From the NCBI GenBank assembly GCA_964555685.1, contig CAZKTO010000003.1, positions 556-64,555 of the forward strand: a stretch of DNA of 64,000 nt, given 5' to 3'. Position numbers and translations under genes: made by a program. Below are positions 872-59,691 of the stretch, piece by piece. Position 1 is the stretch's first letter; every line of letters starts with the position of its first letter. A model generated the notes under the pieces. It did not search any database and had not been told where the DNA came from. It saw nothing but the letters and a program-made list of their open reading frames with translations. The DNA is from an uncultured Dehalococcoidia bacterium. Its GTDB lineage: Bacteria > Chloroflexota > Dehalococcoidia > SHYB01.

Positions 872-2185
872 TCAACCGTACGCCTCGTCCAGGAGCTCGA
901 CGACGTGGGCCACGCGGACGCGCAGGCCGTGCCGCCGCGCCCCCATCTGGAGCTGGAGCATGCAGCCGGGGTTAGCCGTGGCGATGACCTCGGGCTGGAC
1001 GGCCGCCGCGCGCTCGATCTTGCGGGCGAGGATCTGGCGCGAGAGGTCGCGGTGAACGACGTTGTACATGCCGCCCGCTCCGCAGCACATGTCCGAGGCC
1101 TCCATCTCGACCAGCGTCAACCCGGGGATGGAGCGCAGCACGGCCCGAGGCGCGTCCTTGATGCGCTGGGCGTGGGCCAGGTGGCAGGAGTCCTGGTAGG
1201 TGACGCGCGCCCGCATCTCCAGGGTTGGCGGCTGGAGCGGCAGCGCAGCCAGGTACTCGCTCACGTCGCGCACGAGGGCGCTGAAGCGACGGGCCTTTTC
1301 GGCGTAGGCAGGGTCGTCCTTCAGGAGATCGGCGTACTCCTTCATCGTCACGCCGCAGCCGGCCGCATTCACGACGACGGCCTCCACCCCGGCGCTCAGG
1401 AAGACATCGATGTTCCGGCGGGCCAGGGCGCGGGCCGTCTCCCGCTCGCCGGCGTGGGTGTGAAGCGCCCCGCAGCAGCCCTGGCCTCGAGGCACCGCCA
1501 CGTCGCAGCCGTTGCGCGCAAGCACCCGGACCGTCGCTTCGCTGACGGGCCCGTAGATGAGCGGCATGACGCAGCCCGAAAGCACTCCTACCCGCCTCAC
1601 ACCCCGACGTGCCGGGGTACCCGGCCCCTGGGCGCGCGCCACATCGCCGCGAGGGCGCCGGAAGAAGCGCCGCAGGGGGGGCAGCTGCCGGTCCAGCTCG
1701 TCCAGGAGGCCGATGGGCTTGAGGAGGTGGATCTCGCGCACGAGCCATTGGAGGCCGGTTACCTGATACAGCTTGAGGAGCCAGGCCAGGACGCGCAGGA
1801 GCCAGGGCCGGGGCAGGAGCAGGCGGAAGGCGAGCCAGCGCAGCAGCCGCTCGCGCAGGCCGCGCCGCGTGCGCGTGGCGATCTGCGCCCGTGTGGCCTC
1901 CATCACCCGGCCGAAGGGCACGCCCGAGGGGCAGACCGCCTCGCAGGCACGGCACTGGACGCAGAGTTCCATGTGCTCGACGACGCCCTCCGTGAGGCCC
2001 ACGCGCCCCTTGTGGACGGCGAGCATGAGGGCCAGGCGCCCCCGTGGCGACTCCGTCTCGAGCCCGGTGGTGACGTACGTCGGGCACGACTGGAGGCAGA
2101 GACCGCAACGGACGCACTTGTAGAGGTCGGCCTCGGCGGGGGCGTCGGGACCGGCGAAGGTGACGGGCGAGGGCGTCGCGGTCAC
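872..2185 (-). CDS. glcF: glycolate oxidase iron-sulfur subunit (GlcF-like, 2x CxxCxxCxxxCP plus CCG domains)
   Basis: It lies within ORF 872..2608. Motifs seen are CVRCGLCLQSCP and CVQCRACEAVCP. I chose the GTG at 2185 because it overlaps the glcE stop (GTGA), which removes a 141-aa Arg/Pro-rich extension that would overlap glcE. Confidence 0.85.
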   Translation of the reverse strand: MTATPSPVTFAGPDAPAEADLYKCVRCGLCLQSCPTYVTTGLETESPRGRLALMLAVHKGRVGLTEGVVEHMELCVQCRACEAVCPSGVPFGRVMEATRAQIATRTRRGLRERLLRWLAFRLLLPRPWLLRVLAWLLKLYQVTGLQWLVREIHLLKPIGLLDELDRQLPPLRRFFRRPRGDVARAQGPGTPARRGVRRVGVLSGCVMPLIYGPVSEATVRVLARNGCDVAVPRGQGCCGALHTHAGERETARALARRNIDVFLSAGVEAVVVNAAGCGVTMKEYADLLKDDPAYAEKARRFSALVRDVSEYLAALPLQPPTLEMRARVTYQDSCHLAHAQRIKDAPRAVLRSIPGLTLVEMEASDMCCGAGGMYNVVHRDLSRQILARKIERAAAVQPEVIATANPGCMLQLQMGARRHGLRVRVAHVVELLDEAYG

Positions 2186-3543
2186 AGGCCACCTACGAAC
2201 CGGCCGGGGCTCAGGATGCGTCCGGGGTCGAACTGCTCCTTGAGCCGCCGCATGATGGCGAATTCGGAGCCGGGCGTCCCCCACACGTCGATGGACATCT
2301 TGAGAGCGGGCGCGCAGCTCTCGACGACGAAGCTCCCGCCGGCGTTGGCCGCCGCCTTCCGCAGCGTGCCGGCGGCCTCGCCGAGCATCACCTCGTCGCC
2401 CCGACAGGTCGGGGCCTCCCCCCACCAGGACGCCCGGAGCACGCCCGCGGCCAGGTGGACATCCAGCGCCACCTCCAGGTGGCTGCTCTCGGCCAGGGCT
2501 TCGTGCCCGTGGACCAGCCCGCCGAGCCGCGATGCGCGGACCGACGTCCGCGTGATCATGGAGACCGGCGCCGCATCGACGTGGCCCAGCTCGACGATGG
2601 CGCGCCACAGGCTCTCGTACTCGATGGCGTCGCCGACGGCGACGGACTTGCCGCCCGCCTGGGCGAGGAGCCGATGGGCGTCCGACTTCTGCCGCTCGAC
2701 GGCCGCGGGAGCGCTCCCGAAGTCGATGGCGAGGGTATAGAGGCGGTCGCTGAAGGCCGGGACGCCGGTCTTGAGGCCGATCTTGCGCATGGCGTGGGCG
2801 TTCAGGAGGTCGAGGGCCGCGGGGCGGAGGCCCCCCTTGAGGAGGCCGTGGGCCGCATCCAGCGCCTCCCGCAGCTCCCGGAATCCGGCGAGCAGGGCGG
2901 CCCGCGCCTTGGGCGCCGGCGCCAGCTTGAACGTGGCCTCGACGATAATCCCCAGCGTGCCCAGGGAGCCGATGAAGAGCTTCGGCAGGTCGAAGCCGGC
3001 GACGTTCTTGACGACCTTGCCGCCGCCCTTGACGAGCTTGCTCTGAGCGTCCACCACGCGCAGGCCGATGAGCCGGTCCCGCGCCGTCCCGTAGGCGAGG
3101 CGGCGGGGCCCGCTGGTGTTCGCGGCGAGGATGCCGCCAATGGTGGCGCGATCGGGCCGGGGGACATCCAGGGGCAGCATCTGGCCGTGCGGGCCGAGGG
3201 CCCGGCCCAGCTCGGCCAGGGTGATGCCGGCCTCGGCGGTGACCGTGAGGTCGGCGGGCTCATACTCCAGAATCCGGGCCATGCGCCGCGTGCCGAGCAC
3301 GATATCGAGGCGCTCCGGCGGCCGGCCCAGGGCCATGGCGGTGCCGCCGCCGCGCGCCGTCACGGCCAGCCCCTCGGCCGCGGCGAGCCGGACGACCTGG
3401 GCGACCTCGTCGCGGCTGGCGGGGTGGACGGCGGCCCTGGGCACGAGGCCATCGACGGCGTACTGGGCGGCGCCTTCTCCCAGCACCACGTGCTCGGCGC
3501 CGACGGTCTCGGCGAGGGCGCGGTCAAGGGTGAGGGTGGGCAT
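2182..3543 (-). CDS. glcE: glycolate oxidase FAD-binding subunit (GlcE-like, FAD-binding PCMH domain)
   Basis: It lies within ORF 2182..3588. FAD-linked oxidase features include VTARGGGTAM. I chose the internal ATG at 3543 (MPTLTLDRAL...) so that it does not overlap the upstream gene, which ends at 3564. Confidence 0.8.
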   Translation of the reverse strand: MPTLTLDRALAETVGAEHVVLGEGAAQYAVDGLVPRAAVHPASRDEVAQVVRLAAAEGLAVTARGGGTAMALGRPPERLDIVLGTRRMARILEYEPADLTVTAEAGITLAELGRALGPHGQMLPLDVPRPDRATIGGILAANTSGPRRLAYGTARDRLIGLRVVDAQSKLVKGGGKVVKNVAGFDLPKLFIGSLGTLGIIVEATFKLAPAPKARAALLAGFRELREALDAAHGLLKGGLRPAALDLLNAHAMRKIGLKTGVPAFSDRLYTLAIDFGSAPAAVERQKSDAHRLLAQAGGKSVAVGDAIEYESLWRAIVELGHVDAAPVSMITRTSVRASRLGGLVHGHEALAESSHLEVALDVHLAAGVLRASWWGEAPTCRGDEVMLGEAAGTLRKAAANAGGSFVVESCAPALKMSIDVWGTPGSEFAIMRRLKEQFDPGRILSPGRFVGGL

Positions 3544-3563
3544 GGGCAGTGGGGGGAGGGATT

Positions 3564-3908
3564 CTAACCCACTTGGACGAAAGTCCAAACACCTTGCTGT
3601 GGTTCGCTTATGGCCGTGCCGTGTGAGCTAGCCAATGCAGCGAACTTTGCCGATAAGCGGGTGGGCGGGTTCACAAAGACGACCCTCACTGATTTATGTT
3701 CCTCGCGTTCGAGAGCTTCCAATAACGACAGAATTTCGTCCACGAACGAAGGCGTGATACCCTCGATGCCAGAGAAATCAAGGGTTACGTCTCCATCTGC
3801 TGACGCAAGCGCATCCGATAAAGCCGATGCCAAAGAGCGCGCTGACTCCCTAGTGACAAGCACTTTCTTCCCCGTCAGTTCGTATAGCTTCAGCACTTGA
3901 GGGCTCAT
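3564..3908 (-). CDS. small STAS-like protein (resembles the DUF4325 / anti-sigma-antagonist fold)
   Basis: This is a 114-aa ORF in roughly 50% GC DNA. It contains VTLDFSGIEGITPSFVDEILSLL...VRVVFVNPP, which resembles the STAS beta-alpha pattern. A GGAGG Shine-Dalgarno overlaps the upstream stop, 5 nt before the ATG at 3908. Confidence 0.7.
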   Translation of the reverse strand: MSPQVLKLYELTGKKVLVTRESARSLASALSDALASADGDVTLDFSGIEGITPSFVDEILSLLEALEREEHKSVRVVFVNPPTRLSAKFAALASSHGTAISEPQQGVWTFVQVG

Positions 3909-3917
3909 AGCTCCTCC

Positions 3918-4790
3918 TCATGTGGGAATCGAAACGTAGGCCAGCGTCCCGGGGAACAGCCGTGTACGACGAGCTCGATTGGTGGCACGTACCCCAAGCT
4001 CCAGGGTGCTCAGACCGGAGTGGATCATGAGTTGGCGATCTGGAGCTTTCATATCTTCTGCGATCCCGTAGAGACCGATCCCTCTCCTGGGATCTCCTGT
4101 TCCGCTAACACGCTCCTTTACCGCGAGCTCCAGAGCATCCCAGTCGTACCGAATCTTGGGACGAAGTTCTGGATTTCGCTCAAGCGAAGAGCGGATTCCT
4201 ATACCACCGTCGCACACACCGCAAACGAAGCGCTTTCCATATTCAAACGAGTAAAACTGGATGAATCCGTAAGCACCGATAGGAGACTCAGCATGTTGCA
4301 CGGCGTTCATCGCCAATTCAGCGAAGACCTCACTTACAATCGGTCTAATATTTGCCGCCCCAAGCCCCAGCTTGTTAAGAGAATCAAAGGCGTCGTTGGC
4401 CAGTTGCTCAACTTGTGCCTCTTTGACAAATCCTGAGAGGGGAAGAACCACCTGGGTATCCTGTGTTTCAAAGACATCGCGGTCGTCCACCTCTACCCCA
4501 CTGTTTTGAAGAATGCGGAACAGGCCAAGGGTCTTTAGGTAGACGCAGACGCCCAGGTTCATAGGAACCAGCACTCGGCATGTGCTGCCCCGGTGTTTGG
4601 CTAGCAACGGATACACCACACACCACAACACCGCTGCAGGCAGCACAAATGCGCAATCACGGAGGTCGATTTCAACTTCCGGTTCAACAAAACTTGGCGA
4701 CCTTGGATCAAATGCGTCGTATTGGCCGGAGAGTTCCCCAGCGTGCACGAACCTATTCGGCACCACTATCCGCAAAGGCTCTGTTACCAT
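3918..4790 (-). CDS. GHKL-type ATPase / RsbW-SpoIIAB-like serine kinase with an N-terminal STAS-like domain
   Basis: This is a 290-aa ORF. It has an N-box ELAMNAVQHA (aa 158-167), a G1 box DGGIGI (194-199) and a G2 box GIGLYG (237-242). The N-terminal roughly 135 aa (EIDLRDCAFVLPAAVLWCVVYPLL...RVLVPMN...YLKTLGLFRIL) look STAS-like. A GAGGGA Shine-Dalgarno lies 7 nt before the ATG at 4790. Confidence 0.75.
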   Translation of the reverse strand: MVTEPLRIVVPNRFVHAGELSGQYDAFDPRSPSFVEPEVEIDLRDCAFVLPAAVLWCVVYPLLAKHRGSTCRVLVPMNLGVCVYLKTLGLFRILQNSGVEVDDRDVFETQDTQVVLPLSGFVKEAQVEQLANDAFDSLNKLGLGAANIRPIVSEVFAELAMNAVQHAESPIGAYGFIQFYSFEYGKRFVCGVCDGGIGIRSSLERNPELRPKIRYDWDALELAVKERVSGTGDPRRGIGLYGIAEDMKAPDRQLMIHSGLSTLELGVRATNRARRTRLFPGTLAYVSIPT

Positions 4791-4817
4791 GACTTCATCC
4801 CTCAGGTTATCGCAATA

Positions 4818-6272
4818 CTACACAAACGCCCCGGGCCCCAGGTCCGGCAGGGTCTTGAGGCGCCAGCCCTCCCCGCAGCCGGAGCCCGTGGGGAAGACCT
4901 TGCACGGGTTGAAGGTCTCCGTCCCGCCAAACGACACGCGCACCTTTTCCATCGCCGCCATGTCGTCGTCCGAGAAGATCAGCTTCATGAAGCCCTTCTT
5001 CTCCAGGCCCACGCCGTGCTCGCCGGTGATGGAGCCGCCGGCCTCGACGCAGACGCGCATGATCTCGGCGCCCGCCTCCAGCACGCGCTCGCTCTGGCCG
5101 GCGATGCGCTCGTCGAAGAGGACGTTGGGGTGCAGGTTCCCATCGCCGGCGTGGAAGACGTTGGCCACCAAGAGCCCGTAGCGCTGGCCGATCTCGTTCA
5201 CCTGGCGCAGCACGGGCAGGAGCTTGGTGCGCGGGACGACGCCATCGAGGATGTAGTAGTTGGGGGCGAGACGGCCCAGCGCCCCCAGCGCTCCCTTGCG
5301 CCCGGCCCAGAGCCGCTCCCGGTCCTGGGGCGACTCCGCCGTCCGCACCTCCGTGGCGCCGAGATCGCGGCAGATGGCCTCCACGGCGGCCGCCTCCTCG
5401 GCCACCGCCTCCCTGATGCCGTCCACCTCGATCAGCAGCACGGCCCCCGCGTCTGGCGGGTAGTCGCAGCGCACCGCCTGCTCGACCGCGCCGATGGTCA
5501 CCTTGTCGATCATCTCGAGCGCGGCTGGGACGACCCCCGCGGCGATGATGGCGGAGACGGCGCGGCTGGCGTCGTCCATCTCCCGGTAGATAGCAACGAG
5601 GGTCTTGATGGCCGCGGGCAGCGGCGTGAGCTTGACGGCGATCTTGGTGGCGATGCCGCACGTCCCCTCGGAGCCCACGAAGAGGCCCGTGAGGTCGTAG
5701 CCGGGCGCGTCCTGGTGCGACCCGCCCAGCCAGACCACCTCGCCATCGGGCAGGACCACCTCCAGGCCCAGGACGTGGTTGGTCGTCACGCCGTAGGCCA
5801 GGCAGTGGGGCCCGCCGGAGTTCTCGGCCACGTTCCCGCCGATGGTGCAGGCCTTCTGGCTCGAGGGGTCCGGCACGTAGTGGAGGCCGTGGGGCTCCGC
5901 CTGCTGGCTCAGGTGCAGGTTGATGACCCCCGGCTCGACGATGGCGACACGGTCCACCGGGTCGAGCTCCAAGATGCGGGTCATGCGCGTGAGGGAGACG
6001 ACGATGCCGCCACGGATGGCGACGGCGCCACCGCTGAGGCCCGTCCCAGCGCCGCGCGGCACGATGGGGATGCCGTGCTGGTGGGCCAGGCGGACGACCT
6101 TCGCGACCTGCTCCGTGCTGGTGGGGAAGACGACGGCCTGGGGCGGCATCTTCTCGATGGAGCCATCGAACTCGAAGACGACCATGTCCTCGGGCGTCCA
6201 GAGCACGGCGCCGCGCCCCACGATGCGCTCGAGGGCGGTGATGAGGCTGGGCTTTCGGGTCTTGGCAGGCAT
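4818..6272 (-). CDS. glcD: glycolate oxidase subunit D / FAD-linked oxidase
   Basis: This 484-aa ORF has a PCMH FAD-binding domain (IVPRGAGTGLSGGAV) and a C-terminal FAD-oxidase domain (GSITGEHGVGLEK). Confidence 0.9.
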   Translation of the reverse strand: MPAKTRKPSLITALERIVGRGAVLWTPEDMVVFEFDGSIEKMPPQAVVFPTSTEQVAKVVRLAHQHGIPIVPRGAGTGLSGGAVAIRGGIVVSLTRMTRILELDPVDRVAIVEPGVINLHLSQQAEPHGLHYVPDPSSQKACTIGGNVAENSGGPHCLAYGVTTNHVLGLEVVLPDGEVVWLGGSHQDAPGYDLTGLFVGSEGTCGIATKIAVKLTPLPAAIKTLVAIYREMDDASRAVSAIIAAGVVPAALEMIDKVTIGAVEQAVRCDYPPDAGAVLLIEVDGIREAVAEEAAAVEAICRDLGATEVRTAESPQDRERLWAGRKGALGALGRLAPNYYILDGVVPRTKLLPVLRQVNEIGQRYGLLVANVFHAGDGNLHPNVLFDERIAGQSERVLEAGAEIMRVCVEAGGSITGEHGVGLEKKGFMKLIFSDDDMAAMEKVRVSFGGTETFNPCKVFPTGSGCGEGWRLKTLPDLGPGAFV

Positions 6273-16086: not shown

Positions 16087-16854
16087 ATGCGGTTCCTGAT
16101 GATAGGCGATACGGTGGGCAAGCCGGGACGGCGGGCGGTCCAGCGGCTGGTCCCGGAGCTCCGCCGCCAGCACGACCTCGACCTGGTCATCTGCAACGCG
16201 GAGAACGCCGCCGGCGGCATCGGGCTCACGCCAGAGACGGCAGACGACCTCTTACAAGCGGGCGTGGACGTCCTCACCACCGGCAACCACGCCTGGGCCA
16301 AGAAGGAGATCCTGCCCTACCTGGATAGCGAGATGCCCATCATCCGGCCCGTCAACTATCCGCCGGGCGTCCCCGGCCGGGGCTACGTCTTTCATAAGGG
16401 CGTGCTGGTCGTCCAGGTCATCGGGCGCGTCTTCATGCAGAACGTGGACGACCCGTTCCGGACCATCGACCGCGTGCTCGCCGAGGCGGGCGGCCGCGCC
16501 CAGGTCATCATCGTGGACTGCCACGCCGAGGCCACGTCCGAGGCCAACGCCATGGGATGGTACCTGGACGGCCGGGTCAGCGCCGTCCTGGGCACCCACA
16601 CCCACATCGGCACCATCGACGCCAAGGTCCTGCCCAGGGGCACCGCCTACATCACCGACATCGGCATGGTGGGACCGCGAGACTCCGTCATCGGCAACTC
16701 GGTGCCGGAGGTCCTGGAGCGGTTCCTCACCCAGATGCACGTCCCGCTCTCTGTCGCGTCCGGGCCCGTCGAGTTCCATTCGGTGCTGGTGGACGTGGAC
16801 GAGCAGACCGGCCGCGCCCGCAGCATCACCCGAATCGACATGGAGGTCCCCTGA
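16087..16854 (+). CDS. ymdB: YmdB-type metallophosphoesterase (2',3'-cyclic-nucleotide phosphodiesterase family)
   Basis: It contains MRFLMIGDTVGKPGR...CNAENAAGGIG...TTGNH. The gene sits in the conserved position after rny. The start is the internal ATG at 16087. Confidence 0.85.
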   Translation: MRFLMIGDTVGKPGRRAVQRLVPELRRQHDLDLVICNAENAAGGIGLTPETADDLLQAGVDVLTTGNHAWAKKEILPYLDSEMPIIRPVNYPPGVPGRGYVFHKGVLVVQVIGRVFMQNVDDPFRTIDRVLAEAGGRAQVIIVDCHAEATSEANAMGWYLDGRVSAVLGTHTHIGTIDAKVLPRGTAYITDIGMVGPRDSVIGNSVPEVLERFLTQMHVPLSVASGPVEFHSVLVDVDEQTGRARSITRIDMEVP

Positions 16855-16857
16855 CCC

Positions 16858-17697
16858 ATGATCGAAGTCGATCTTCACTTGCACACCACCCGGTCCGACG
16901 GGCGCCTGACGCCGACGCAGATCGTCGAGCTGGCGGCGCGGCGCGGGCTCAAGATCATCGCCATCACCGACCACGACTCCACGGCCGGCCTGGACGAGGC
17001 CATGGAGGCCGCCAGGGCTCATCCTCCGCTCGTCATCATCCCCGGAACGGAGCTCAGCACCGACGTGGCCGGAGGCGAGATCCACATTCTGGCCTACTAC
17101 GTGGACAGGGAGAGCCCCGGGTTCCAGAAGCACCTGGCTCGGTTCCGCGCGGCCCGGTACGAGCGCGGGCGCAAGATGGTGGAGAAGCTGGCGGAGCTGG
17201 GGATGCCCCTCTCCTGGGAGCGGGTGCTGGAGATCGCGGGCGACGCCTCCGTGGGCCGCCCGCACGTGGCGCGAGCCCTCGTCGAGCGGGGCTACGTGCC
17301 CACCACCCAGGAGGCCTTCGACCGGTATCTGGGCCGGAACGGCCCCGCCTACGTGGAGCGGGAGAAGCTGACGCCCCAGGAGGCCATCGCCTTCGCCCTG
17401 GAGTATGGGGCGCTGCCGGTGCTGGCCCACCCCGGGTACGTGAACGGCCTCGAGGCGACGCTCCCCGCCCTCAAGAAGGCCGGTCTGGTGGGCATGGAGG
17501 TCTACTACGGCGCCTATCCGGACGGCGAGATGGGCTCCCTCCTGGCCCTGGCCCAGCGGTACGATCTCATCCCGTGCGGCGGGAGCGACTATCACGCCAA
17601 CGGCCACGAGGGGGAGGTGGAGCCTGGCGCCGTGGGTCCGCCCCTCTCGACGGTCCAGCGCCTTGTGGCCCTGAAGGCCCAGGGCGCTCGCCGGTAG
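16858..17697 (+). CDS. PHP-domain phosphoesterase
   Basis: It contains DLHLHTTRSDG...AITDHDS...GGSDYH. Confidence 0.8.
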   Translation: MIEVDLHLHTTRSDGRLTPTQIVELAARRGLKIIAITDHDSTAGLDEAMEAARAHPPLVIIPGTELSTDVAGGEIHILAYYVDRESPGFQKHLARFRAARYERGRKMVEKLAELGMPLSWERVLEIAGDASVGRPHVARALVERGYVPTTQEAFDRYLGRNGPAYVEREKLTPQEAIAFALEYGALPVLAHPGYVNGLEATLPALKKAGLVGMEVYYGAYPDGEMGSLLALAQRYDLIPCGGSDYHANGHEGEVEPGAVGPPLSTVQRLVALKAQGARR

Positions 17698-17712
17698 GTC
17701 CGGCCCCCGGCC

Positions 17713-18165
17713 ATGGAGCTCGACGCGCGGGGCATCGAGACGGTCATTCCGCACCGGCCGCCGTTCCTGCTGATCGACCGGATCGTGGAGTTGGAGCCGG
17801 GGGTACGCGCCGTAGGGCTCAAGACCTTCGCCCCCACGGAGCCCTTCTTCCAGGGCCACTTCCCGGGCAATCCCATCGTCCCGGGCGTGCTCCAGATCGA
17901 GGCCCTGGCCCAGGTCGGCTGCGTGGCCATCCTCTCGGTTCCCGATAACCGGGGCAAGCTCGTCTACTTCGCCGCCATCGACGGCGTCCGGTTCAAGCGG
18001 CCGGTGCGCCCCGGCGACGAGCTCCGGCTCGAGGTACATCTGGTCAAATCGCGCGGGCGCATCGGCAAGGGCGCGGCCCGGGCCACTACGGGCGGGCAGC
18101 TGGTCGTCGAGGGCGAGCTCACCTTTGCCGTGGTCGATCCCCCCACGGCGGGTCCGGGCGGCTGA
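17713..18165 (+). CDS. fabZ: 3-hydroxyacyl-ACP dehydratase
   Basis: It contains [13 protein letters not shown]...[23 protein letters not shown]. Confidence 0.92.
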
Positions 18166-36415: not shown

Positions 36416-37627
36416 TTGGCCGAGCAAGCCCTGGCCGGCGTCCGAGTCCTGGACCTGACCCAGGCTATCGCCGGCCCCTACTGCGCCAAGCTCCTCGCCG
36501 ACTACGGCGCCGACGTCATCAAGATCGAGCGGCCGGGCCTCGGCGATCGCGCGCGGCGGATGGGGCCCTTCCATCGCGACCGCGTCCACCCGGAGCGTAG
36601 CGGGCTGTTCTGGCACCTCAACAGCAACAAGCGCAGCGTCACCCTCAACCTCAAGAGCGCCACGGGCAGGAGGATCTTCCTCGAGCTCCTGGACGGCGCC
36701 GGCGTCGTGGTCGAGAGCTTCGCGCCGCGGGTCATGCCGTCGCTGGGGCTGGACTACGAAACGCTGAGCGCCCGCCGGTCCTCTCTCGTCATGACCTCGA
36801 TCTCCAACTTCGGACAGACGGGCCCCTACCGGGACTACAAGAGCGCCGAGATCGTCACCTACGCCATGGCCGGCCCCATGCACGGCACCGGCCTCCCGGA
36901 GCGGGAGCCCCTCAAGCTGGGCGAGAATGTGATCCAGTACCAGGTTGGCAGCGCCGCGGCGGCCGCCACCGCCATCGCCCTGTGGGAGGCCGAGGTCTCG
37001 GGCCGGGGCGACCATCTGGACGTGTCGCTCTTCCGCGCCCAGGCCTCCTCCCAGGACCGGCGCACCACCATGCTCATCGGCTTCCAGTACACGGGCGAGA
37101 CGATGGACCGGAAGCCGGCGGGCGTGAGCCCGGGCGTGGGCGTCCGCCCCTGCGCCGATGGCTACGTCAACATCATGGGTGCGACGCTGCGCTTCCCCAC
37201 CCTGCTCAAGATGATGGGGCAGACGGAGCTCTTGGACGACCCGCGGTTCAAGGACGACATGGCCCGCGCCCAGCCCGGCGCCTCCGAGGAGTTCGATACC
37301 TACTATATTCCTTATCTTATGCAGTACACCAAGCGGCAGCTCTTCGCCATGGCCCAGGCCCACCACCTGCCGTCGGGGCCCCTCTACGACTCGTCGGACC
37401 TCCTCTCCGATCCGCACTTCCGCGAGCGGGGGTTCTGGCCATCGGTGGAGCACCCGGGCGCCGGCCCCGTCGAGCAGCCGGGGCGGCCGTTCGTCATGGG
37501 CGAGACGCCGTGGCGGCTCCAGCGCCGGGCCCCCGGCCTGGGCGAGCACACGGAGGACGTCCTCTCGGGCATCCTCGGCTACTCGCGGCGGGACCTAGTC
37601 CGGCTCAGGCAGCTGGGCGTCGTGTAG
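36416..37627 (+). CDS. family III (CaiB/BaiF) CoA-transferase, subunit 1
   Basis: It contains LAGVRVLDLTQAIAGPYCAKLLADYGADVIKIE and NFGQTGPY. I chose the TTG at 36416 (GGGAG lies 8 nt upstream). The ATG at 36188 would add 76 Arg/Gly/Pro-rich residues. The start is uncertain. Confidence 0.8.
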   Translation: MAEQALAGVRVLDLTQAIAGPYCAKLLADYGADVIKIERPGLGDRARRMGPFHRDRVHPERSGLFWHLNSNKRSVTLNLKSATGRRIFLELLDGAGVVVESFAPRVMPSLGLDYETLSARRSSLVMTSISNFGQTGPYRDYKSAEIVTYAMAGPMHGTGLPEREPLKLGENVIQYQVGSAAAAATAIALWEAEVSGRGDHLDVSLFRAQASSQDRRTTMLIGFQYTGETMDRKPAGVSPGVGVRPCADGYVNIMGATLRFPTLLKMMGQTELLDDPRFKDDMARAQPGASEEFDTYYIPYLMQYTKRQLFAMAQAHHLPSGPLYDSSDLLSDPHFRERGFWPSVEHPGAGPVEQPGRPFVMGETPWRLQRRAPGLGEHTEDVLSGILGYSRRDLVRLRQLGVV

Positions 37628-37638
37628 GAGGCGGGACG

Positions 37639-38937
37639 ATGCCGTTGCCGCTTTCGGGCATTCGAGTGCTGGATCTGACAGCCGTGTGGGCCGGCCCGCA
37701 CGCCACCATGATCCTCGCCGACTGGGGCGCTGAGGTCATCCGCGTCGAGTCGACCCAGGTCTTCCAGACGACCACGCGCGGGCACATGGTCAAGGTGCCC
37801 AAGCAGATGCCGAAGATGCGGAAGGGCTGGGGCTCGTGCTACCCGGACTGGGACCCGGGCGAGCGGCCATGGAACCGCTACCCGATCTTTCAGAGCCACG
37901 CCCGCAACAAGCTGAGCATGACCGCCGACCTGCGCCGGCCCGAGGGCCTGGCCGTCTTCCACCGGCTCCTCGCCGTCTCGGACGTCTTCATCGAGAACAA
38001 CGTGCCGGAGACCATCGAGAAGCTGCACCTGACCTACGAGGAGCTGGTCAAGATCAAGCCGGACCTGATCCAGCTCCGCATGCCGGCCTATGGACTTAGC
38101 GGACCGTACAAGAACTACCGGTCGTTCGGCGTGCAGCTGGAGGGGACCGCCGGCCACACGTGGGTGCGGGGCTACACGGACATGGACGCCTCCTCGCGGG
38201 ACGACGCCTACTACGGCGACGCCGCCGCCGGCGTGAACGGCGCCTTCGCGGTGGTCATGGCCCTGCGCCACCGGCTGCGGACCGGCAAGGGCCAGCTCAT
38301 CGAGCTCGCTCAATGCGAGACCTTCGCGCCGTACATGGGCGAGTCCATCATGGACTTCGTCATGAACGGCCGCGTCCACAGCACCCTGGGCAACCGCCAT
38401 CCATCCAATGCGCCCCAGGGGGTCTATCGTTGCAGCGGCCAGGACCGGTGGGTTACCATTGCCGTCAGGACGGACGGCGAGTGGCAGGGGCTCTGCCGGG
38501 CGCTCGGCAATCCGGTTTGGGCATCCGACCCCCGGTTCGCCACGGGCCTCGGGCGGTGGAGTCACCAGGACGCGCTGGACCCGCTCATCGAGGCGTGGAC
38601 GCGCCAGCGCAGCGGCCGGGAGGCGATGGGGCTGCTCCAGGCGCAGGGGGTGCCGGCGGGCCCGGTGATGGACGAGCGCGACCTCTTCGCCGACCCACAG
38701 ATCAACGGCCAGAGCTATTTCAAGCGCCTGACCCACGCCGACGCGGGCACGCACCTCTACCCCGGCCTCATGTGGTCTGCCCGGAACACGCCCAACGAGG
38801 TCCGGACGCCCCCGTGCCGCCTCGGCGAGCATAACCCATACGTCTACCGCGAGCTCCTGGCCATCCCACCCGGCGAGTACGCGAGGATGGAGGAGACGGG
38901 GCATATCGGCGAGGTGTACGCGAGCCACCTGCCCTAG
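37639..38937 (+). CDS. family III CoA-transferase-like, subunit 2
   Basis: The ATG at 37639 follows an AGGAGG. It contains LSGIRVLDLTAVWAGPHATMILADWGAEVIRVES. A long insert follows the Rossmann strand. Confidence 0.8.
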   Translation: MPLPLSGIRVLDLTAVWAGPHATMILADWGAEVIRVESTQVFQTTTRGHMVKVPKQMPKMRKGWGSCYPDWDPGERPWNRYPIFQSHARNKLSMTADLRRPEGLAVFHRLLAVSDVFIENNVPETIEKLHLTYEELVKIKPDLIQLRMPAYGLSGPYKNYRSFGVQLEGTAGHTWVRGYTDMDASSRDDAYYGDAAAGVNGAFAVVMALRHRLRTGKGQLIELAQCETFAPYMGESIMDFVMNGRVHSTLGNRHPSNAPQGVYRCSGQDRWVTIAVRTDGEWQGLCRALGNPVWASDPRFATGLGRWSHQDALDPLIEAWTRQRSGREAMGLLQAQGVPAGPVMDERDLFADPQINGQSYFKRLTHADAGTHLYPGLMWSARNTPNEVRTPPCRLGEHNPYVYRELLAIPPGEYARMEETGHIGEVYASHLP

Positions 38938-42550: not shown

Positions 42551-43315
42551 TCACTGCGCCGTATAGCCGCCGTCCACCGTCAGCACCACGCCGGTGACGA
42601 AGCCTGCCTCGTCGGAGGCCAGGTAGAGCACCGCCTGGGCGATATCCTCCGGCGTCGCCACACGCCCCAGGGGGATTCGCTGGCTCAACAGGGCGAAGAG
42701 CGAGTCCGGGTCATCGGCGCGCATGGCCTCTGTCATGGCCGTGCGCGTGAACCCCGGCGCGACGGCGTTGACGCGGATCTTGTCGGCGGCGTAGTCGATC
42801 GCTAGCTGGCGCGTGAGCATGATGACCGCACCCTTGGAGGCGGCGTAGACGCTTTGGCGGGGCTGACCAAAGAGGCCGGAGATGGAGGCGGTGTTCACGA
42901 TGGAGCCGCCGCCGGTCCGCAGCATCTCGCGGATGACGTGCTTGGCCACAAAGAAGACGCCGCGGACGTTCACGTCCATCACGCGGTCGTACTCGGGCAT
43001 GGTCAGCTCATGGAGCTTGAGGACGGACTCGAGGCCCAGGACGCCGGCGTTGTTGAAGAGGATATCTATCCGGCCGAAGCGCACCATGACGGTCCCTACG
43101 GCCGCCTCGATGGAGGGCTCGCGGGTCACGTCCATGGGGACGAAGAGGGCCTGGCCGCCCGCGTCCTCGATGGTGCGCGCGGCCTGAACGCCCCGCGCCT
43201 CGTCCCGGTCGGCCAGAGCGACGCGGGCGCCCTCCTTCGCGAAGAGCAGCGCGGCGGCCCGGCCGATGCCCGAGGCGGCGCCGGTGATGAGGGCGGCCTT
43301 GTTCTGGAGACGCAT
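42551..43315 (-). CDS. short-chain dehydrogenase/reductase
   Basis: The start is the internal ATG at 43315 (MRLQNKAALITGAASGIG). It contains YAASKGA. Confidence 0.88.
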   Translation of the reverse strand: MRLQNKAALITGAASGIGRAAALLFAKEGARVALADRDEARGVQAARTIEDAGGQALFVPMDVTREPSIEAAVGTVMVRFGRIDILFNNAGVLGLESVLKLHELTMPEYDRVMDVNVRGVFFVAKHVIREMLRTGGGSIVNTASISGLFGQPRQSVYAASKGAVIMLTRQLAIDYAADKIRVNAVAPGFTRTAMTEAMRADDPDSLFALLSQRIPLGRVATPEDIAQAVLYLASDEAGFVTGVVLTVDGGYTAQ

Positions 43316-43503
43316 GCTGACCTCCCATCGGGGTACGGGCCGGACACCCCGGCCTGTCGGAGCACCGGTCGCCCGCGCTGCCCCACGAACCTGTAGGCAA
43401 CGGAAGCGGCGCCATGATACCATAGGTGGCCGTCGCGGCCCAGGACGCCGGGTCCAGCGCCGCGCCGGCGCCAGCCCAGCCGTTGTCAGGACCAATCGCC
43501 ACC

Positions 43504-48239: not shown

Positions 48240-49367
48240 CTAGTCCGGCACCTGTTTCGCCACGAACTCGCGCGCCCAGGCGTCAGCGTCCAGCACGTCC
48301 TCCAGCGAGGGGTACTGGACCGACCGGTGGGCGCCCAGGGCCGCCTCGACGAGCTTGGGGATCTCGCCGAACCCTACCTGGTACGTCAGGAACATCCCCA
48401 CGGCCACCTCGTCGGCGGCGGCCAGCACCGCCGGGAAGGTGCCGCCTCGCCTGCCGGCCTCCAGGGCCAGCCGGAAGCACGGATAGCGCCCCATATCCAT
48501 AGGCTCGAAGGTGAGCTTCCCCACCTCGATGAGATTCAGCCGAGGCAGCGAAGGATTCGGCCACCGCTCGGGATAGGAGAGGGAGTACTGGATGGGCAGG
48601 CGCATGTCGGGCGGACCCAGCTGGGCCTTCACCGAGCCATCGGCCAGCTCGACCATCGAGTGGATAATGCTCTGGGGGTGGATCACCACCTCGATGCGGT
48701 CCATGGGGACGCCGAAGAGCCAGTTGGCCTCGATGACCTCGAACCCTTTATTCATCAGTGTCGCCGAGTCGATGGTGATCTTGCGCCCCATGCGCCACGT
48801 CGGGTGATTGAGGGCCTCGCCCTGGGTGACGGCCGCGATCTCGTGGATGGGCCGGGCGCGGAAGGGGCCGCCGGATGCGGTAAGGATGATGCGCTGGATC
48901 TCCTTGCTCTCGCCGCGCATGCACTGCCACATGGCGCTGGGCTCGCTGTCCACGGGCAGGATCTCGACGCCGTTGCGCTGGGCCTGGGCGGTGACGATGT
49001 TGCCCGCCATGATGATGACCTCTTTGTTGGCCAGCGCGATGGCCTTGCGGGCGTTGATGGCGGCCAGCGTCGGCATCAGGCCCATGCGCCCGACGGTGGC
49101 GACCATGATGACGTCCACCTCCGGATGGACCGCCATCTCCTCCATGGTGGTATAGCGCCAGCCGTTGGGGACCAGGAGCTCGTCGCCGACGCCCCTGGTG
49201 TAGTAGACCATCTGGGGCTTGAACTCGGCGACCTGTTTGGAGAGCAACTCGATATTCGAACCCGCGGCGAGGCCCAGGACCTGGAAGCGATCGGGGAAGG
49301 AGCGGACGATGTCGAGGGTCTGGCGGCCGATGGAGCCCGTGGAACCGAGGATGGCGATGCGCTTCAT
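48240..49367 (-). CDS. dxr: 1-deoxy-D-xylulose 5-phosphate reductoisomerase
   Basis: The start is the internal ATG at 49367 (MKRIAILGSTGSIGRQTL), which overlaps the cdsA stop (ATGA). Confidence 0.92.
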   Translation of the reverse strand: MKRIAILGSTGSIGRQTLDIVRSFPDRFQVLGLAAGSNIELLSKQVAEFKPQMVYYTRGVGDELLVPNGWRYTTMEEMAVHPEVDVIMVATVGRMGLMPTLAAINARKAIALANKEVIIMAGNIVTAQAQRNGVEILPVDSEPSAMWQCMRGESKEIQRIILTASGGPFRARPIHEIAAVTQGEALNHPTWRMGRKITIDSATLMNKGFEVIEANWLFGVPMDRIEVVIHPQSIIHSMVELADGSVKAQLGPPDMRLPIQYSLSYPERWPNPSLPRLNLIEVGKLTFEPMDMGRYPCFRLALEAGRRGGTFPAVLAAADEVAVGMFLTYQVGFGEIPKLVEAALGAHRSVQYPSLEDVLDADAWAREFVAKQVPD

Positions 49368-50239
49368 GGTGCACTCAGCCCTTCCGTTACGAAGTAGTAT
49401 AGCACGACGATTGCCGGAATCAGGCTGTCCAGACGGTCCAGCACGCCGCCGTGCCCGGGGATGAGCCCGCTGGAGTCCTTCACCCCGGCCATCCGCTTGA
49501 TCATCGAGAGGGAGAGGTCGCCGAACTGGGAGGCGACGGCCAGGAGGAACCCGAGCAGCACGCCCTGGCCGGCGTTGATCTCGAGATCGAAGCCAGCGGT
49601 GACGGCCCAGCCGGCGACCATGCCCGTGGCGATGCCGGCGATGGAGCCCTCCCACGTCTTCCGGGGGCTGATGGTCGGCGCCATGGGGTGACGGCCCACC
49701 AGGCGGCCGATGACGTAGGCGCTGGTATCCACGGCGAAGGTGAGGATGACGGCCGTCAACAGCCACTCGCGCCCCTCCACCAGCGCCCGGATGCGGACGG
49801 CGTGGCTCAGGGTCCAGCCGATGAGGAAGACGCCGGCCAGCGTCCAGACCCAATCGGCCAGGAGCCGCTCCTTGGGCGGCGTGAGGAGCAGAAGGAAGAG
49901 GGGCACGATGATGGTCCCGGTGATGAGGGCGCCCTGGAAGTTGAAATCGACGACGGCCTCGACGACGAAGAGGACGCCAGCGACGATGCCCAGGAGAAGG
50001 GTGGGCGTGGCGCCAGCCCGGACGGTCATCCGGTGGAACTCGTAGACGCCGACGCAGGCCGCCGCCGAGACCAGGGCCGCCGTGGCGGGCACGCCGAACC
50101 ACACCATGGCAATGATGAGCGGCGTGAAGACGGCCCCGGAGGTGACGCGGGAGCGGATGTTGGACGATGGACCGGCGGGCGCACCGCCCGGGACGCCGTG
50201 GCCGGCCGGTACGGGTCGTCCGGTCACGGGCTGGGCCAC
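49364..50239 (-). CDS. cdsA: phosphatidate cytidylyltransferase
   Basis: It is multi-TM and has the C-terminal signature SMIKRMAGVKDSSGLIPGHGGVLDRLDS. I chose the GTG at 50239 (GGAGGAG lies 8 nt upstream). Confidence 0.88.
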   Translation of the reverse strand: MAQPVTGRPVPAGHGVPGGAPAGPSSNIRSRVTSGAVFTPLIIAMVWFGVPATAALVSAAACVGVYEFHRMTVRAGATPTLLLGIVAGVLFVVEAVVDFNFQGALITGTIIVPLFLLLLTPPKERLLADWVWTLAGVFLIGWTLSHAVRIRALVEGREWLLTAVILTFAVDTSAYVIGRLVGRHPMAPTISPRKTWEGSIAGIATGMVAGWAVTAGFDLEINAGQGVLLGFLLAVASQFGDLSLSMIKRMAGVKDSSGLIPGHGGVLDRLDSLIPAIVVLYYFVTEGLSAP

Positions 50240-53938: not shown

Positions 53939-54304
53939 ATGCTCAAGACGCAAGGCTTCACCCATCTCCATCTCGCGGTCAAGGATATCCAGCGGTCCCT
54001 GAAGTTCTACACCGAGACGCTGGGGATGCAGGTCCAGTTCTGGGAGGGGCGCTCGATGGTCTTCCTGCACACGCCGGGCTCCCGGGACCTGCTGACGCTG
54101 CGCCAGGCGAGGAGGGGCGAGGCCGTGGGCATGGGCGGCGGCTTGGGCCACTTCGGCTTCCGGCTCAAGGACAAGGCCGGTCTGGATGCGGCGGTGAAGG
54201 AGGTCGTGGCCGCGGGCGGCAAGCTGCTAGGCAGAGGCGAGCACGCGCCCGGCCTCCCGTACGCCTACCTCTCCGACCCGGACGGGTATGTGATCGAGCT
54301 GTAA
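53939..54304 (+). CDS. VOC/glyoxalase-family protein
   Basis: The start is the internal ATG at 53939 ([24 protein letters not shown]). It contains DPDGYVIEL. Confidence 0.8.
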
Positions 54305-54315
54305 AGCGCCTTTCC

Positions 54316-54903
54316 ATGCCTGAGACCAACGTACAGCGGTGCTGGGCTGGGTCCGACGACCAGCTCATGCTGCGCTACCACGACGAGGAGTGGGGCGTGC
54401 CGCTGCACGACGACCGCAAACACTTCGAGTTCCTGGTCCTCGATGGCTTCCAGGCGGGGCTCTCCTGGCGCACCATCCTCCACAAACGAGAGAACTTCCG
54501 TCGAGCGTTCCACGACTTCGACGTTGCGCGCATCGCCCGGTACCGGGACAAGGACGTCCAGCGGCTGCTCAGCGATCCAGGCATCGTCCGCAACCGGCAG
54601 AAAGTCCAGGCGGCGATCGTCAACGCCCAACGCTTCTTAGAGGTCCAAAAAGAGTTGGGCGCCTTTGATCGCTACATCTGGCAATTCACAAACTTCAAGA
54701 CGCTGCGGAACCCAAAAGGGATCGCCAGCTGGCAGGACGTCCCAGCGACGAGCCCGGAGTCGGACGCCATGTCGCGCGACCTGACGAAGCGCGGCTTCAA
54801 GTTCGTCGGCAGCACGATCTGCTACGCGTACATGCAGGCGGCAGGCATGGTGAACGACCACCTTAACGGGTGCTTTCGCGCGCCGCGGAAGCACCGATCC
54901 TAA
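54316..54903 (+). CDS. tag: DNA-3-methyladenine glycosylase I
   Basis: It contains YHDEEWGVPLHDDRKHFEFLVLDGFQAGLSW. Confidence 0.9.
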   Translation: MPETNVQRCWAGSDDQLMLRYHDEEWGVPLHDDRKHFEFLVLDGFQAGLSWRTILHKRENFRRAFHDFDVARIARYRDKDVQRLLSDPGIVRNRQKVQAAIVNAQRFLEVQKELGAFDRYIWQFTNFKTLRNPKGIASWQDVPATSPESDAMSRDLTKRGFKFVGSTICYAYMQAAGMVNDHLNGCFRAPRKHRS

Positions 54904-59145: not shown

Positions 59146-59162
59146 CAGCATGAGGCGCTGGC
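59133..59162 (+). repeat. 30-bp perfect direct repeat, left copy
   Basis: cgagcggcagtagcagcatgaggcgctggc is identical to 59713-59742. This copy contains the CoA-transferase stop codon. Confidence 0.9.
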
Positions 59163-59233
59163 GTTGTCTGGACCGGACAGCGATCGCTGGTATGATGCGC
59201 GCGTGGGGTATGATGACCTCAAGGGGGTCAGCC

Positions 59234-59446
59234 GTGGATCAAACTGAGATCATCTTCGCCGTCGCCGAGTCGCCAGAGGGCGGTTACGAGGCTCGTGCCC
59301 TGGGTCACTCCATCTACACCCAAGCCGAGACCTTTGACGAACTGAAGGAAATGGTGAGGGACGCCGTGCGCTGCCACTTCAACGAGGGCACGGGACCGCG
59401 GGTCATCAGGCTGCACTTGGTAAAGGAAGAGGTCATCCCTGCTTGA
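59234..59446 (+). CDS. hicB: HicB-like antitoxin (UPF0150 fold, no obvious DNA-binding domain)
   Basis: The start is the GTG at 59234 (AAGGGGG Shine-Dalgarno). The product starts VDQTEIIFAVAESPEGGYEARALGHSIYTQAETFDELKEMVRDAV. Confidence 0.7.
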   Translation: MDQTEIIFAVAESPEGGYEARALGHSIYTQAETFDELKEMVRDAVRCHFNEGTGPRVIRLHLVKEEVIPA

Positions 59447-59691
59447 GGCTTCCGCGGGACGTAGCCGGAGCCGATCTGGCGGGGCGTCTCCGTCGCTTCG
59501 GGTATGCGATCACACGGCAGACGGGAAGCCACCTGCGGCTAACGTCGGCAGCGAGGGGAGCCGAGCACCACATCTCGATCCCGCTTCATAGGCCGCTCAA
59601 GGTCGGCACGCTCAGCGCCATCATCTCCGACGTCGCCTCCTACCTCGAGTTGGAGCGGGATACCCTGGTGGACGACCTGTTCAAAAGGTGA
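59443..59691 (+). CDS. hicA: HicA-family mRNA-interferase toxin
   Basis: The TTG start overlaps the hicB stop. It contains FGYAITRQTGSHLRLTS...HHISIPLHRPLKVGTL. Confidence 0.7.
   Translation: MRLPRDVAGADLAGRLRRFGYAITRQTGSHLRLTSAARGAEHHISIPLHRPLKVGTLSAIISDVASYLELERDTLVDDLFKR

Follow-up and report, generated by a model that had tools for sequence, protein, structure and literature searches.

The window analysed here is a stretch of 64,000 nucleotides (nt) from an uncultured Dehalococcoidia bacterium (NCBI GenBank assembly GCA_964555685.1, contig CAZKTO010000003.1, positions 556 to 64,555), and all coordinates below refer to this window. Two intact open reading frames (ORFs) of the minus strand, gene A and gene B, occupy positions 3544-4817, where they lie between glcD and glcE and are co-oriented with the operon. 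The host gene upstream of this insert is glcD (4818-6272, minus strand; Pfam FAD_binding_4 and FAD-oxidase_C), which ends with the stop codon TAG at 4820-4818. It is followed on the same strand by a leader of 27 nt (4791..4817), the AT-rich upstream edge of the insert, which bears the Shine-Dalgarno sequence GAGGGA at 4803-4798. Gene A (3918-4790, minus strand; stop TGA 3920-3918) encodes a protein of 290 amino acids (aa), a predicted STAS-GHKL kinase of the VapK/CapK type and hence the K gene of the pair. A spacer of 9 nt (3909..3917, minus strand), in which GGAGGA (3917-3912) abuts the stop codon of A, leads to gene B (3564-3908, minus strand; stop TAG 3566-3564), the S gene, which encodes a single STAS/DUF4325 domain of 114 aa. 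The last spacer of 20 nt (3544..3563, minus strand) is GC-rich and host-like, and ends at the ATG (3543) of the downstream host gene glcE (2182..3543, minus strand; Pfam FAD_binding_4 and FAD-oxidase_C), after which comes glcF (~872-2200; Pfam CCG/Fe-S). The gene coordinates and the 27-, 9- and 20-nt spacers of a preliminary description of this DNA were reproduced exactly, and each gene does have a Shine-Dalgarno sequence, as it had stated.

The position of GGAGGA against the stop codon of A is a layout that would be expected to favour translational coupling of A and B. The preliminary description had noted neither a sigma factor, PP2C phosphatase, integrase or transposase nor a target-site duplication, and likewise we found no gene of these four kinds within ~10 kb of the cassette (window genes, Pfam), and no terminal inverted or direct repeats or target-site duplication around it other than short chance matches. 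A scan limited to the sigma-70-type consensus found no promoter inside the cassette, nor was a convincing terminator found there. The nearest terminator-like hairpin (4842-4830) lies inside the coding end of glcD, and such matches are no commoner than in shuffled sequence. An Rfam scan of the window found no RNA family, no meaningful match to NCBIfam was obtained with either protein, and PADLOC called no defence system at the locus, with B matching none of its models.

The cassette differs sharply in composition from the rest of the window. With a GC content of 53.8%, as against 69.4% (standard deviation 2.2) in non-overlapping windows of 1274 nt (z = -7.1), it ranks lowest in the whole 64 kb, and the tetranucleotide deviation is also largest at the cassette (0.67 versus 0.37±0.04). 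Local recounts (46.7% for 3721-3780, 48.3% for 4201-4260 and 71.7% for 4861-4920) reproduce the hand counts on which the low GC content had initially been proposed. GC content at the third codon position (GC3) is 0.55 in A and 0.56 in B, whereas it is 0.94-0.96 in the flanking genes (0.94 in glcE). Moreover, GC3 stays at 0.96 up to the last 25 codons of glcD and is 0.88-1.00 from the first 25 codons of glcE, and this step directly at the end of glcD and the start of glcE shows that the compositional edge coincides with the gene boundaries, in keeping with the earlier view of the cassette as a foreign and precisely intergenic element. An ancient residence of the cassette with low GC content maintained by codon selection was set aside, as the GC3 of 0.55 versus 0.95 together with the discordant synonymous divergence (dS) discussed below favours recent import and exchange.

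The genes glcD and glcE are normally contiguous, as had been stated, and they are adjacent in 60 of 65 metagenomic loci examined. A homologue of A or B is present at none of 80 metagenomic glcE loci, a comparison of the empty site that is made with distant glc operons only, the best metagenomic relatives of GlcE being ~40% identical. Given its host-like composition and the direct adjacency of glcD and glcE in these 60 loci, the 20-nt spacer before glcE is probably the ancestral glcD-glcE spacer. We consider it rather likely, as a judgement made jointly with the core model proposed below, that the 1.27-kb segment is a two-gene module which was acquired recently and horizontally and has no promoter of its own.

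In three metagenomic contigs (L071 2665-3813, L085 2680-3708 and L148 2664-3794) a different gene is present between glcD and glcE. It encodes a product of 340-380 aa with ClpC-like Clp_N repeats at its start, as judged by eye, and has a native GC3 of 0.83-0.85. The glcD-glcE junction thus tolerates other inserts as well.

The A and B proteins and their relatives

The AlphaFold2 (AF2) model of A, built on 54 homologues, has a predicted local distance difference test (pLDDT) score of 90.4 and a predicted template modelling (pTM) score of 0.90, and reveals two domains, viz., an N-terminal beta-alpha-beta domain, whose first element is the beta-strand of residues 6-9, and a C-terminal Bergerat fold. 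The N-terminal domain (residues 1-125; 4416..4790, minus strand) has a pLDDT of 87 when modelled alone. Foldseek searches initiated with it found mostly STAS domains as the best matches in the PDB, with modest scores (TM 0.5-0.56, E 0.17-1). Searches with the C-terminal GHKL domain (residues 126-290; 3921..4415, minus strand) identified histidine-kinase catalytic domains, the P4 domain of CheA and SpoIIAB with a TM-score to target of 0.6-0.65, the matches with the SpoIIAB-type fold being PDB identifiers 1th8, 1tid and 1l0o. The kinase domain harbors an N box (E158-x3-N162, with the codon of N162 at 4307-4305), a G1 box (D194-G-G-I-G198) and a G2 box (G230-T-G...R236-G-I-G-L-Y-G242), and the motif residues of all three boxes are invariant across the homologues compared. 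In the N-terminal domain, the motif C46-x-F48-V-L-P-x-A-V contains a phenylalanine (F48, codon 4649-4647) that does not vary among 18 sequences and reaches at least 90% conservation among 54.

For A, Pfam matches HATPase_c_2 below threshold (E 0.18, 12.2 bits versus a cut-off of 27.4), a search of PDB sequences with the A profile gave no match, and neither Pfam nor the AF2 model reveals a helix-turn-helix (HTH) ahead of the STAS domain. When the N-terminal domain was aligned with B using hhalign, the result was not significant (probability 1.2%), with the motif LD-x-x-x-x-x-x-P-S/A alone being aligned. The assignment of the N-terminal domain to STAS hence rests on its fold and on the homology of A to VapK described below. 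Taken together, the model, the Foldseek matches and the conserved motifs indicate that in A a STAS-like domain is joined to a predicted GHKL serine kinase of the VapK/CapK type, with the N, G1 and G2 boxes that the preliminary description had read from the sequence.

Residues 38-273 of A also match positions 33-255 of the 1750-position PADLOC model for DrmA, a component of DISARM (E 3.5e-10). DISARM was rejected as an identity for the locus, as A matches only this N-terminal part of DrmA and the helicase domain and the DISARM partners (DrmB, DrmC, methylase) are absent. Some DrmA helicases may carry an N-terminal STAS-GHKL module resembling K. No long fusion protein, DrmA-like or other, is present among the best 150 representatives of the A family in a library clustered at 50% identity.

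B matches STAS_2 (E 6.6e-7) and DUF4325 (E 2.2e-6) of Pfam, both above the cut-offs, and its earlier description as a small STAS/DUF4325-like protein is hence upheld. Ser54 (codon 3749-3747) is conserved in 50 of 51 sequences (98%) within the motif T-P53-S54-F-x-D57-E, and is placed in the loop or helix start at which STAS antagonists get phosphorylated; R20, D44, P53, D57 and W108 are invariant. We presume B to be the phospho-acceptor of A, with Ser54 as the candidate acceptor residue. B is acidic (isoelectric point 5.1) and has no match to an HTH or winged HTH (wHTH) domain. A search of the PDB with the B profile found, as the only STAS protein among weak matches, the chain described as 'Escherichia VapS' (PDB identifier 9z7o_A, E 0.3).

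Two systems with a comparable pair of proteins have been described recently (Chambers et al., EMBO J 2026; PMC13373217). CapK (of CapKS, the 'controller of adjacent pathways') is an HTH-STAS-GHKL kinase, which single-stranded DNA (ssDNA) activates via Trp68 and which phosphorylates Ser54 of CapS, a repressor with STAS and wHTH domains, resulting in de-repression of the adjacent immune operon (PMC13373217). VapK is a STAS-GHKL kinase that needs Phe54 for its function, VapS is a STAS antitoxin of 116 aa, a role demonstrated by experiment, with phospho-Ser48, the acceptor being an absolutely conserved Ser/Thr of helix 2, and VapC is a PIN toxin that is inhibited by the C-terminal helix of VapS (residues 94-116) (PMC13373217). 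All three components, K, S and C, are needed for protection against phage (PMC13373217). The capKS genes directly precede immune operons, e.g., Bub, CBASS and Thoeris, and for 36% of vapKSC operons an anti-phage immune gene is found no more than 10 kb away (PMC13373217). A PIN group 'transcriptionally coupled to DUF4325 genes', of VapC-type toxins in operons like those of toxin-antitoxin (TA) systems, had already been recorded in 2017 (PMC5499597). A search of the literature for DUF4325 returned incidental mentions only.

Using the VapK and VapS sequences from the supplementary AlphaFold files of PMC13373217, the profile of the A family could be aligned with VapK over 222 columns (A 35-284, VapK 41-284) by hhalign with a probability of 96% and an E-value of 2e-9, and a pairwise BLASTP comparison of A with VapK gave an E-value of 8e-6. 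The residues C46-A-F48-V-L-P-A-A-V of A superpose on C52-R-F54-L-R-P-N-A-V of VapK, the motif common to both being CxF[VL]RPxAV. F48 of A is thus aligned with F54 of VapK, the aromatic residue of the STAS domain required for ssDNA-dependent function (W68 being its counterpart in CapK), which is hence conserved in A. B and VapS could be aligned over B 6-63 and VapS 3-58 (hhalign E 1e-4, probability 56%), i.e., over the N-terminal half, while no alignment was obtained between the C-terminal halves, of which that of VapS bears the VapC-inhibiting helix (residues 94-116). A search of plasmids with a VapS fragment gave no match. The preliminary description had known of no described relative for the architecture, a view that no longer stands given CapK/CapS and VapK/VapS/VapC (PMC13373217) and the full-length homology of A to VapK.

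Like VapK, A has STAS and GHKL domains in a protein of ~290 aa without an HTH, B is close to VapS in length (114 versus 116 aa) and likewise has a single domain of the STAS/DUF4325 type whose conserved Ser is placed in the corresponding loop, and the order of the genes is K followed by S. Unlike vapKSC, B is not followed by a vapC/PIN gene but by glcE, which starts 20 nt downstream, and the A-B subfamily has housekeeping neighbours whereas over a third of the vapKSC operons are near immune genes. Further, the identity of the K proteins is ~23% and the match of the S proteins is marginal. With CapKS the pair shares a gene for a STAS-bearing GHKL kinase and a partner STAS protein with a conserved Ser encoded directly downstream. 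However, CapK has an N-terminal HTH where A begins with the STAS beta-strand, CapS represses transcription through a C-terminal wHTH whereas B is acidic and lacks a DNA-binding domain, and capKS is situated upstream of immune operons whereas A-B is situated between glcD and glcE, followed by glcF. Thus, the A-B pair is, by sequence similarity, a member of the CapK/VapK and CapS/VapS superfamily which belongs to neither of the named systems: it falls outside VapKSC because it has no VapC toxin gene, and outside CapKS because K has no HTH, S has no wHTH and the pair is not upstream of an immune operon. The logic of the sensor has been known since 2026; what is new here is that the two-gene form without an effector makes up a large and conserved family.

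Resemblance to RsbW/RsbV, which had been noted earlier together with SpoIIAB/SpoIIAA, holds as a distant analogy only. In common with these pairs, A has a Bergerat-fold Ser kinase domain and the Ser of the STAS partner is at the start of helix 2. Their kinases, however, have no fused STAS domain, their function needs a PP2C phosphatase and a cognate sigma factor, both absent from the A-B locus, and they serve chromosomal regulons and are not mobile cassettes. An RsbW/RsbV module was therefore rejected based on the fused STAS domain of A, the lack of a sigma factor and PP2C within ~10 kb and the sub-threshold match to HATPase_c_2, although such factors may be encoded elsewhere in the genome.

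More distant homologues of A connect these families. Pairs similar to A-B are also seen on phages and plasmids, where a kinase-like protein of ~290-307 aa is accompanied by a DUF4325 protein of ~102-114 aa, again without a PIN toxin or wHTH. These K proteins are 25-30% identical to A and, unlike the pair in the window, are encoded on mobile elements near an integrase, a repressor or an insertion sequence (IS). Examples are Streptococcus phage Javan172 (0004/0003), Francisella phage KIRK (Fhv_0046/0047) and the Alicyclobacillus plasmid pAACI02. In the Alicyclobacillus plasmid and the Streptococcus prophage Javan172 the homologue of A is followed by a plain DUF4325 protein, and in KIRK a pair of 293 aa and 112 aa (DUF4325) lies between the repressor and integrase genes. 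Gordonia phage Phishy gp32 has a Pfam match to STAS and a weaker one to HATPase_c. On a Janibacter plasmid, the partner of the A homologue is a DUF4325-MarR/wHTH protein, which is the architecture of CapS.

Genomic distribution and exchange of the cassette

Homologues of A form 659 clusters in a collection clustered at 90% identity, most of them being 283-290 aa long and ~60% identical, and the 50%-identity library has 2687 representatives at E <= 1e-3, of which 78 reach E <= 1e-30. Scanning species-representative genomes for matches to A-B yielded 65 loci, whose metagenome-assembled genome (MAG) labels, which call for the customary care as regards binning, are Chloroflexota/Dehalococcoidia, SAR202, Planctomycetota, 'Deltaproteobacteria' and Acidobacteria, with two archaeal ones. 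B follows A in 64 of the 65, the lone exception being at a contig end, and the two genes therefore do co-occur as a pair elsewhere, as the preliminary description presupposed. They are usually spaced by 2-12 nt or overlap at ATGA. The cassette is more than 3 points lower in GC than its flanks at 56 of the 65 loci (mean 7 points), and the largest excess over the flanks is +0.4 (L059). Across 60 loci, no conserved sequence is found upstream of A or downstream of B.

None of these other 65 loci has glc genes. The upstream neighbour is co-oriented with A in 41 of 54 loci and is at most 50 nt away in 24, according to our own crude gene calls. At 10 loci the cassette lies between the genes of the large subunit and the B12-binding small subunit of methylmalonyl-CoA mutase (MCM), at 2 loci between the hydantoinase A and B genes (hyuA/hyuB), at 5 or more between a cysteine-desulfurase-type aminotransferase operon and a DUF255 thioredoxin gene, and at 4 after coaX-coaBC. 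It is also found after purS, gyrA, a GlnRS/GluRS-type tRNA synthetase gene, an ABC permease and a CoA-transferase, and directly before polA, trpE and a class II (Asp/Lys/Asn-type) tRNA synthetase gene. Three enzymes thus hold the cassette between their subunit genes, viz., MCM, hydantoinase and the window's own glcD/glcE. The reading of the pair as an operon hitch-hiker, put forward for this one locus, hence extends to the whole subfamily.

We looked for recurring partners among the 105 immediate neighbours of the 65 loci. The PIN family is not among their 25 commonest Pfam families, a list that extends to families with one matching neighbour and may miss a PIN gene beside a single cassette, and the checked small ORFs of low GC content in the window include no PIN gene either. 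Neither a sigma factor nor PP2C recurs among the 105 neighbours, and PADLOC found few matches among them, mostly generic ones such as cysteine desulfurase as DndA/SspA and PolA as a reverse transcriptase (RT) model. The preliminary description had also entertained a defence-type setting, which these results do not bear out, PADLOC calling no system and the neighbours of the homologues being housekeeping genes and not defence islands.

Three side observations concern genes near members of the family. A retropepsin-like gene encoding 121-128 aa (Pfam gag-asp_proteas, E 6.6e-7), with an intermediate GC3 of 0.62-0.71, adjoins the cassette between the MCM genes (L040 5608-5973; L043 5604-5969 and 7219-7602, one on each side of the cassette; L046, L050 and L055). 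It was set aside as a third component as it is confined to the MCM context, and may be a second hitch-hiker or an accessory component. A conserved ORF of 208 aa without a Pfam match is found 3-41 nt upstream of A (L041 5362-5988, L053 and L062), which belongs to the cysteine-desulfurase/DUF255 context and has a native GC3 of 0.88-0.91. A distant K-S pair (290 and 111 aa, from a branch at E 1e-33) is seen in the context of a mobile element (L151 4527-7942), where its companions are a divergent repressor of the LexA-DNA-binding type, a GmrSD_C/Excalibur protein, HTH_17 excisionase-like genes and a DUF3987 primase.

The ratio of nonsynonymous (dN) to synonymous divergence, calculated on unsaturated pairs, is 0.1-0.2 for both A and B, indicating purifying selection. 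At the MCM site, for which ten genomes could be compared, the flanking genes are 84-94% identical whereas A and B are 51-87% identical and form at least three allele groups. Here, the divergence of A co-varies with that of B (Spearman 0.75), and neither is correlated with that of the flanks. Between allele groups the cassette is saturated in dS and has a dN of 0.3-0.4, as against 0.05 in the flanks. On the other hand, in two comparisons the cassette is the less diverged part: dS is 0.37-0.45 in the cassette and 0.8-0.9 in the flanks for L050 versus L055, and 0.7 in the cassette and 1.15-1.29 in the flanks for L040 versus L043. As the discordance in dS is in both directions, it does not fit simple vertical descent and points to replacement at a fixed site; the sequence comparison indicates that the cassette is replaced through recombination in the conserved flanks. 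The systematic residence in housekeeping operons and this exchange of cassettes at fixed sites without any recombinase are new here.

About 6 of the 65 copies of A are disrupted while B is intact. In L032 (6780-8024) A is split by an insertion with a 414-aa transposase of the IS256/Mutator family (Pfam E 9e-58), and in L033, L052, L058, L060 and L063 it is frameshifted, truncated or has a stop codon. Such a proportion of disrupted copies is typical of accessory genes. We are inclined to regard the subfamily, again jointly with the core model, as an accessory, conflict-type module which is housed in housekeeping operons and swapped at given sites.

Proposed mechanism and alternative explanations

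Based on these similarities, we hypothesize that A-B is a relative, lacking an effector, of CapKS and VapKSC, the systems that sense DNA damage, and that it consists of a kinase, A, and its cognate STAS substrate, B. We consider this core model probable. A and B would be expressed through read-through of the glcDEF mRNA. On DNA damage or phage replication, ssDNA would switch A on, the activated kinase would phosphorylate B at Ser54, and phospho-B would then change its binding partner. Since a VapC toxin and a DNA-binding domain are both missing from the cassette, the output would be a protein encoded elsewhere, by the host or an invader, or kinase A itself once released from B, both of which we take to be serious options.

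Several points weigh against this model. We infer the activation by ssDNA and the phosphorylation of Ser54 from homology at 23% identity, and the model has a gap at its key step, the output partner. The similarity of B to VapS is weak and confined to the N-terminal half, and Ser48 of VapS aligns with Pro53 of B, one residue off Ser54, so that the register of the acceptor is inexact. Unlike capKS and vapKSC, the subfamily has no association with defence genes and its context gives a defence role no support, and a scan of the viral contigs of IMG/VR found no member of the subfamily. As regards expression by read-through, an internal promoter may exist, the scan having covered the sigma-70-type consensus only.

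More tentatively, an effector-less K-S pair could be a self-sufficient module for conflict or stress of a hitherto undescribed kind, in which the ssDNA-sensing kinase would be the effector and the STAS protein its antidote, or the STAS protein would switch a core host process encoded elsewhere. In both versions, this conceivable reading includes a cassette without a promoter, placed scarlessly between co-transcribed housekeeping genes, at times between two subunit genes of the same enzyme, and exchanged among lineages by recombination of its flanks with no recombinase of its own.

The alternative that survives best is a TA or abortive-infection module with the kinase as effector. Here B would restrain A as a pseudo-substrate, and on a trigger such as ssDNA, A would phosphorylate and shed B and go on to phosphorylate essential host or phage proteins, with growth arrest as the result. 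No separate effector gene is seen across the 65 loci, and the strict pairing, fixed order and spacing suited to translational coupling are as would be anticipated of such a module. DUF4325 proteins pair with VapC-type PIN toxins (PMC5499597) and VapS is a proven antitoxin (PMC13373217). The phage K-S pairs (Javan172, KIRK and Phishy) adjoin integrase or repressor genes, the usual place of exclusion genes, the inactivation of A with B intact at ~6 of the 65 loci is specific to the kinase, and the turnover of alleles at fixed sites is typical of conflict genes. Nevertheless, the kinase of the characterised relatives acts on the STAS protein only, the characterised GHKL Ser kinases SpoIIAB, RsbW, CapK and VapK all having the cognate STAS partner as target, and the neighbourhoods are not enriched in defence genes. 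We consider this alternative unlikely.

A second alternative would see the cassette as a relic or purely selfish passenger, a vapKSC-like system that has lost its toxin, is inactive, and is kept since a deletion within an operon is risky. The cassette does lack an effector and a promoter, its location in essential or metabolic operons makes imprecise deletion costly, and some copies are decaying (the IS256-family insertion in L032, and L033, L052, L058, L060 and L063). Against this, both genes are under purifying selection (dN/dS 0.1-0.2), the residues for catalysis and phospho-acceptance do not vary from phylum to phylum, and the intact two-gene copies number in the hundreds and agree in length. 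Further, no VapC is seen beside copies of the subfamily, so that the two-gene state is the norm and not a product of decay. We regard a relic as highly unlikely.

Classical partner switching as in RsbW/RsbV or SpoIIAB/SpoIIAA, with A as the anti-sigma factor for a sigma factor encoded elsewhere, would agree with the match of the C-terminal domain to the SpoIIAB fold (TM to target 0.6-0.65), with B as a STAS protein with a conserved Ser, and with the JGI label 'anti-sigma regulatory factor (Ser/Thr protein kinase)' on several homologues. It is very improbable, as the match to HATPase_c_2 is poor (E 0.18, ~12 bits versus 27.4), A has an additional N-terminal STAS domain and can be aligned with VapK from end to end, a sigma factor or PP2C is neither found near the cassette (~10 kb) nor recurs among the 105 neighbours, and the pair crosses phyla as a unit, which is a poor fit to dependence on a specific host sigma factor. 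Lastly, a native and vertically inherited regulator of glycolate oxidase that, for example, couples glc to stress would explain why the cassette is co-oriented and tightly packed between glcD and glcE, but has a negligible probability in view of the GC3 of 0.55 versus 0.95 with its razor-sharp edges, the presence of the pair at 0 of 80 other glcE loci with glcD and glcE adjacent in 60 of 65, and the occurrence of the cassette elsewhere in unrelated operons (MCM, hyuA/hyuB, coaBC, purS, gyrA, polA, trpE and the GlnRS/GluRS-type tRNA synthetase gene).

Under the core model of an effector-less sensor pair, A-B bears on how such sensors are employed. In CapKS and VapKSC, a GHKL kinase and a STAS substrate form a portable sensor of DNA damage, which has been wired to different outputs. 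A-B would be the same sensor pair without a wired output, yet it is conserved, under selection and widespread (659 clusters). The target of B or A, once found, would either add a new class of output to this signalling logic or establish the kinase as an effector. The location of the pair is also of consequence. Accessory genes with a fast turnover are usually expected in islands beside integrases. Cassettes inside core operons escape searches based on guilt by association with defence islands, and the insertions in glcDEF and between the subunit genes of MCM and hydantoinase illustrate that core operons can host exchangeable foreign genes.

Other compositional outliers in the window

Apart from the A-B cassette, a few other genes of the window stand out by their composition. 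At 59150-59691 (plus strand), GC3 is 0.74-0.80 as compared to ~0.93 in host genes; this segment encodes a HicA toxin of 82 aa (59443-59691, plus strand; Pfam E 1e-8), which is overlapped by an upstream ORF of 98 aa without a Pfam match, and is probably an imported TA pair of the hicAB type. Another compositionally foreign two-gene unit is present at 54265-54894 (minus strand), in which adjacent ORFs encode 121 aa (GC3 0.72) and 85 aa (GC3 0.53), both without a Pfam match. Three single ORFs of low GC3, for which Pfam likewise finds no match, may be further horizontally acquired genes, viz., 16252-18039 (minus strand, 595 aa, GC3 0.72), 37579-38928 (minus strand, 449 aa, GC3 0.67) and 42854-43396 (plus strand, 180 aa, GC3 0.73). 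Finally, the ORF of Dxr (DXP reductoisomerase; 48240-50102, minus strand) has a GC3 of 0.75 and its Pfam domains begin at residue 249, which reflects either an N-terminal extension of ~240 aa or a mis-set start.

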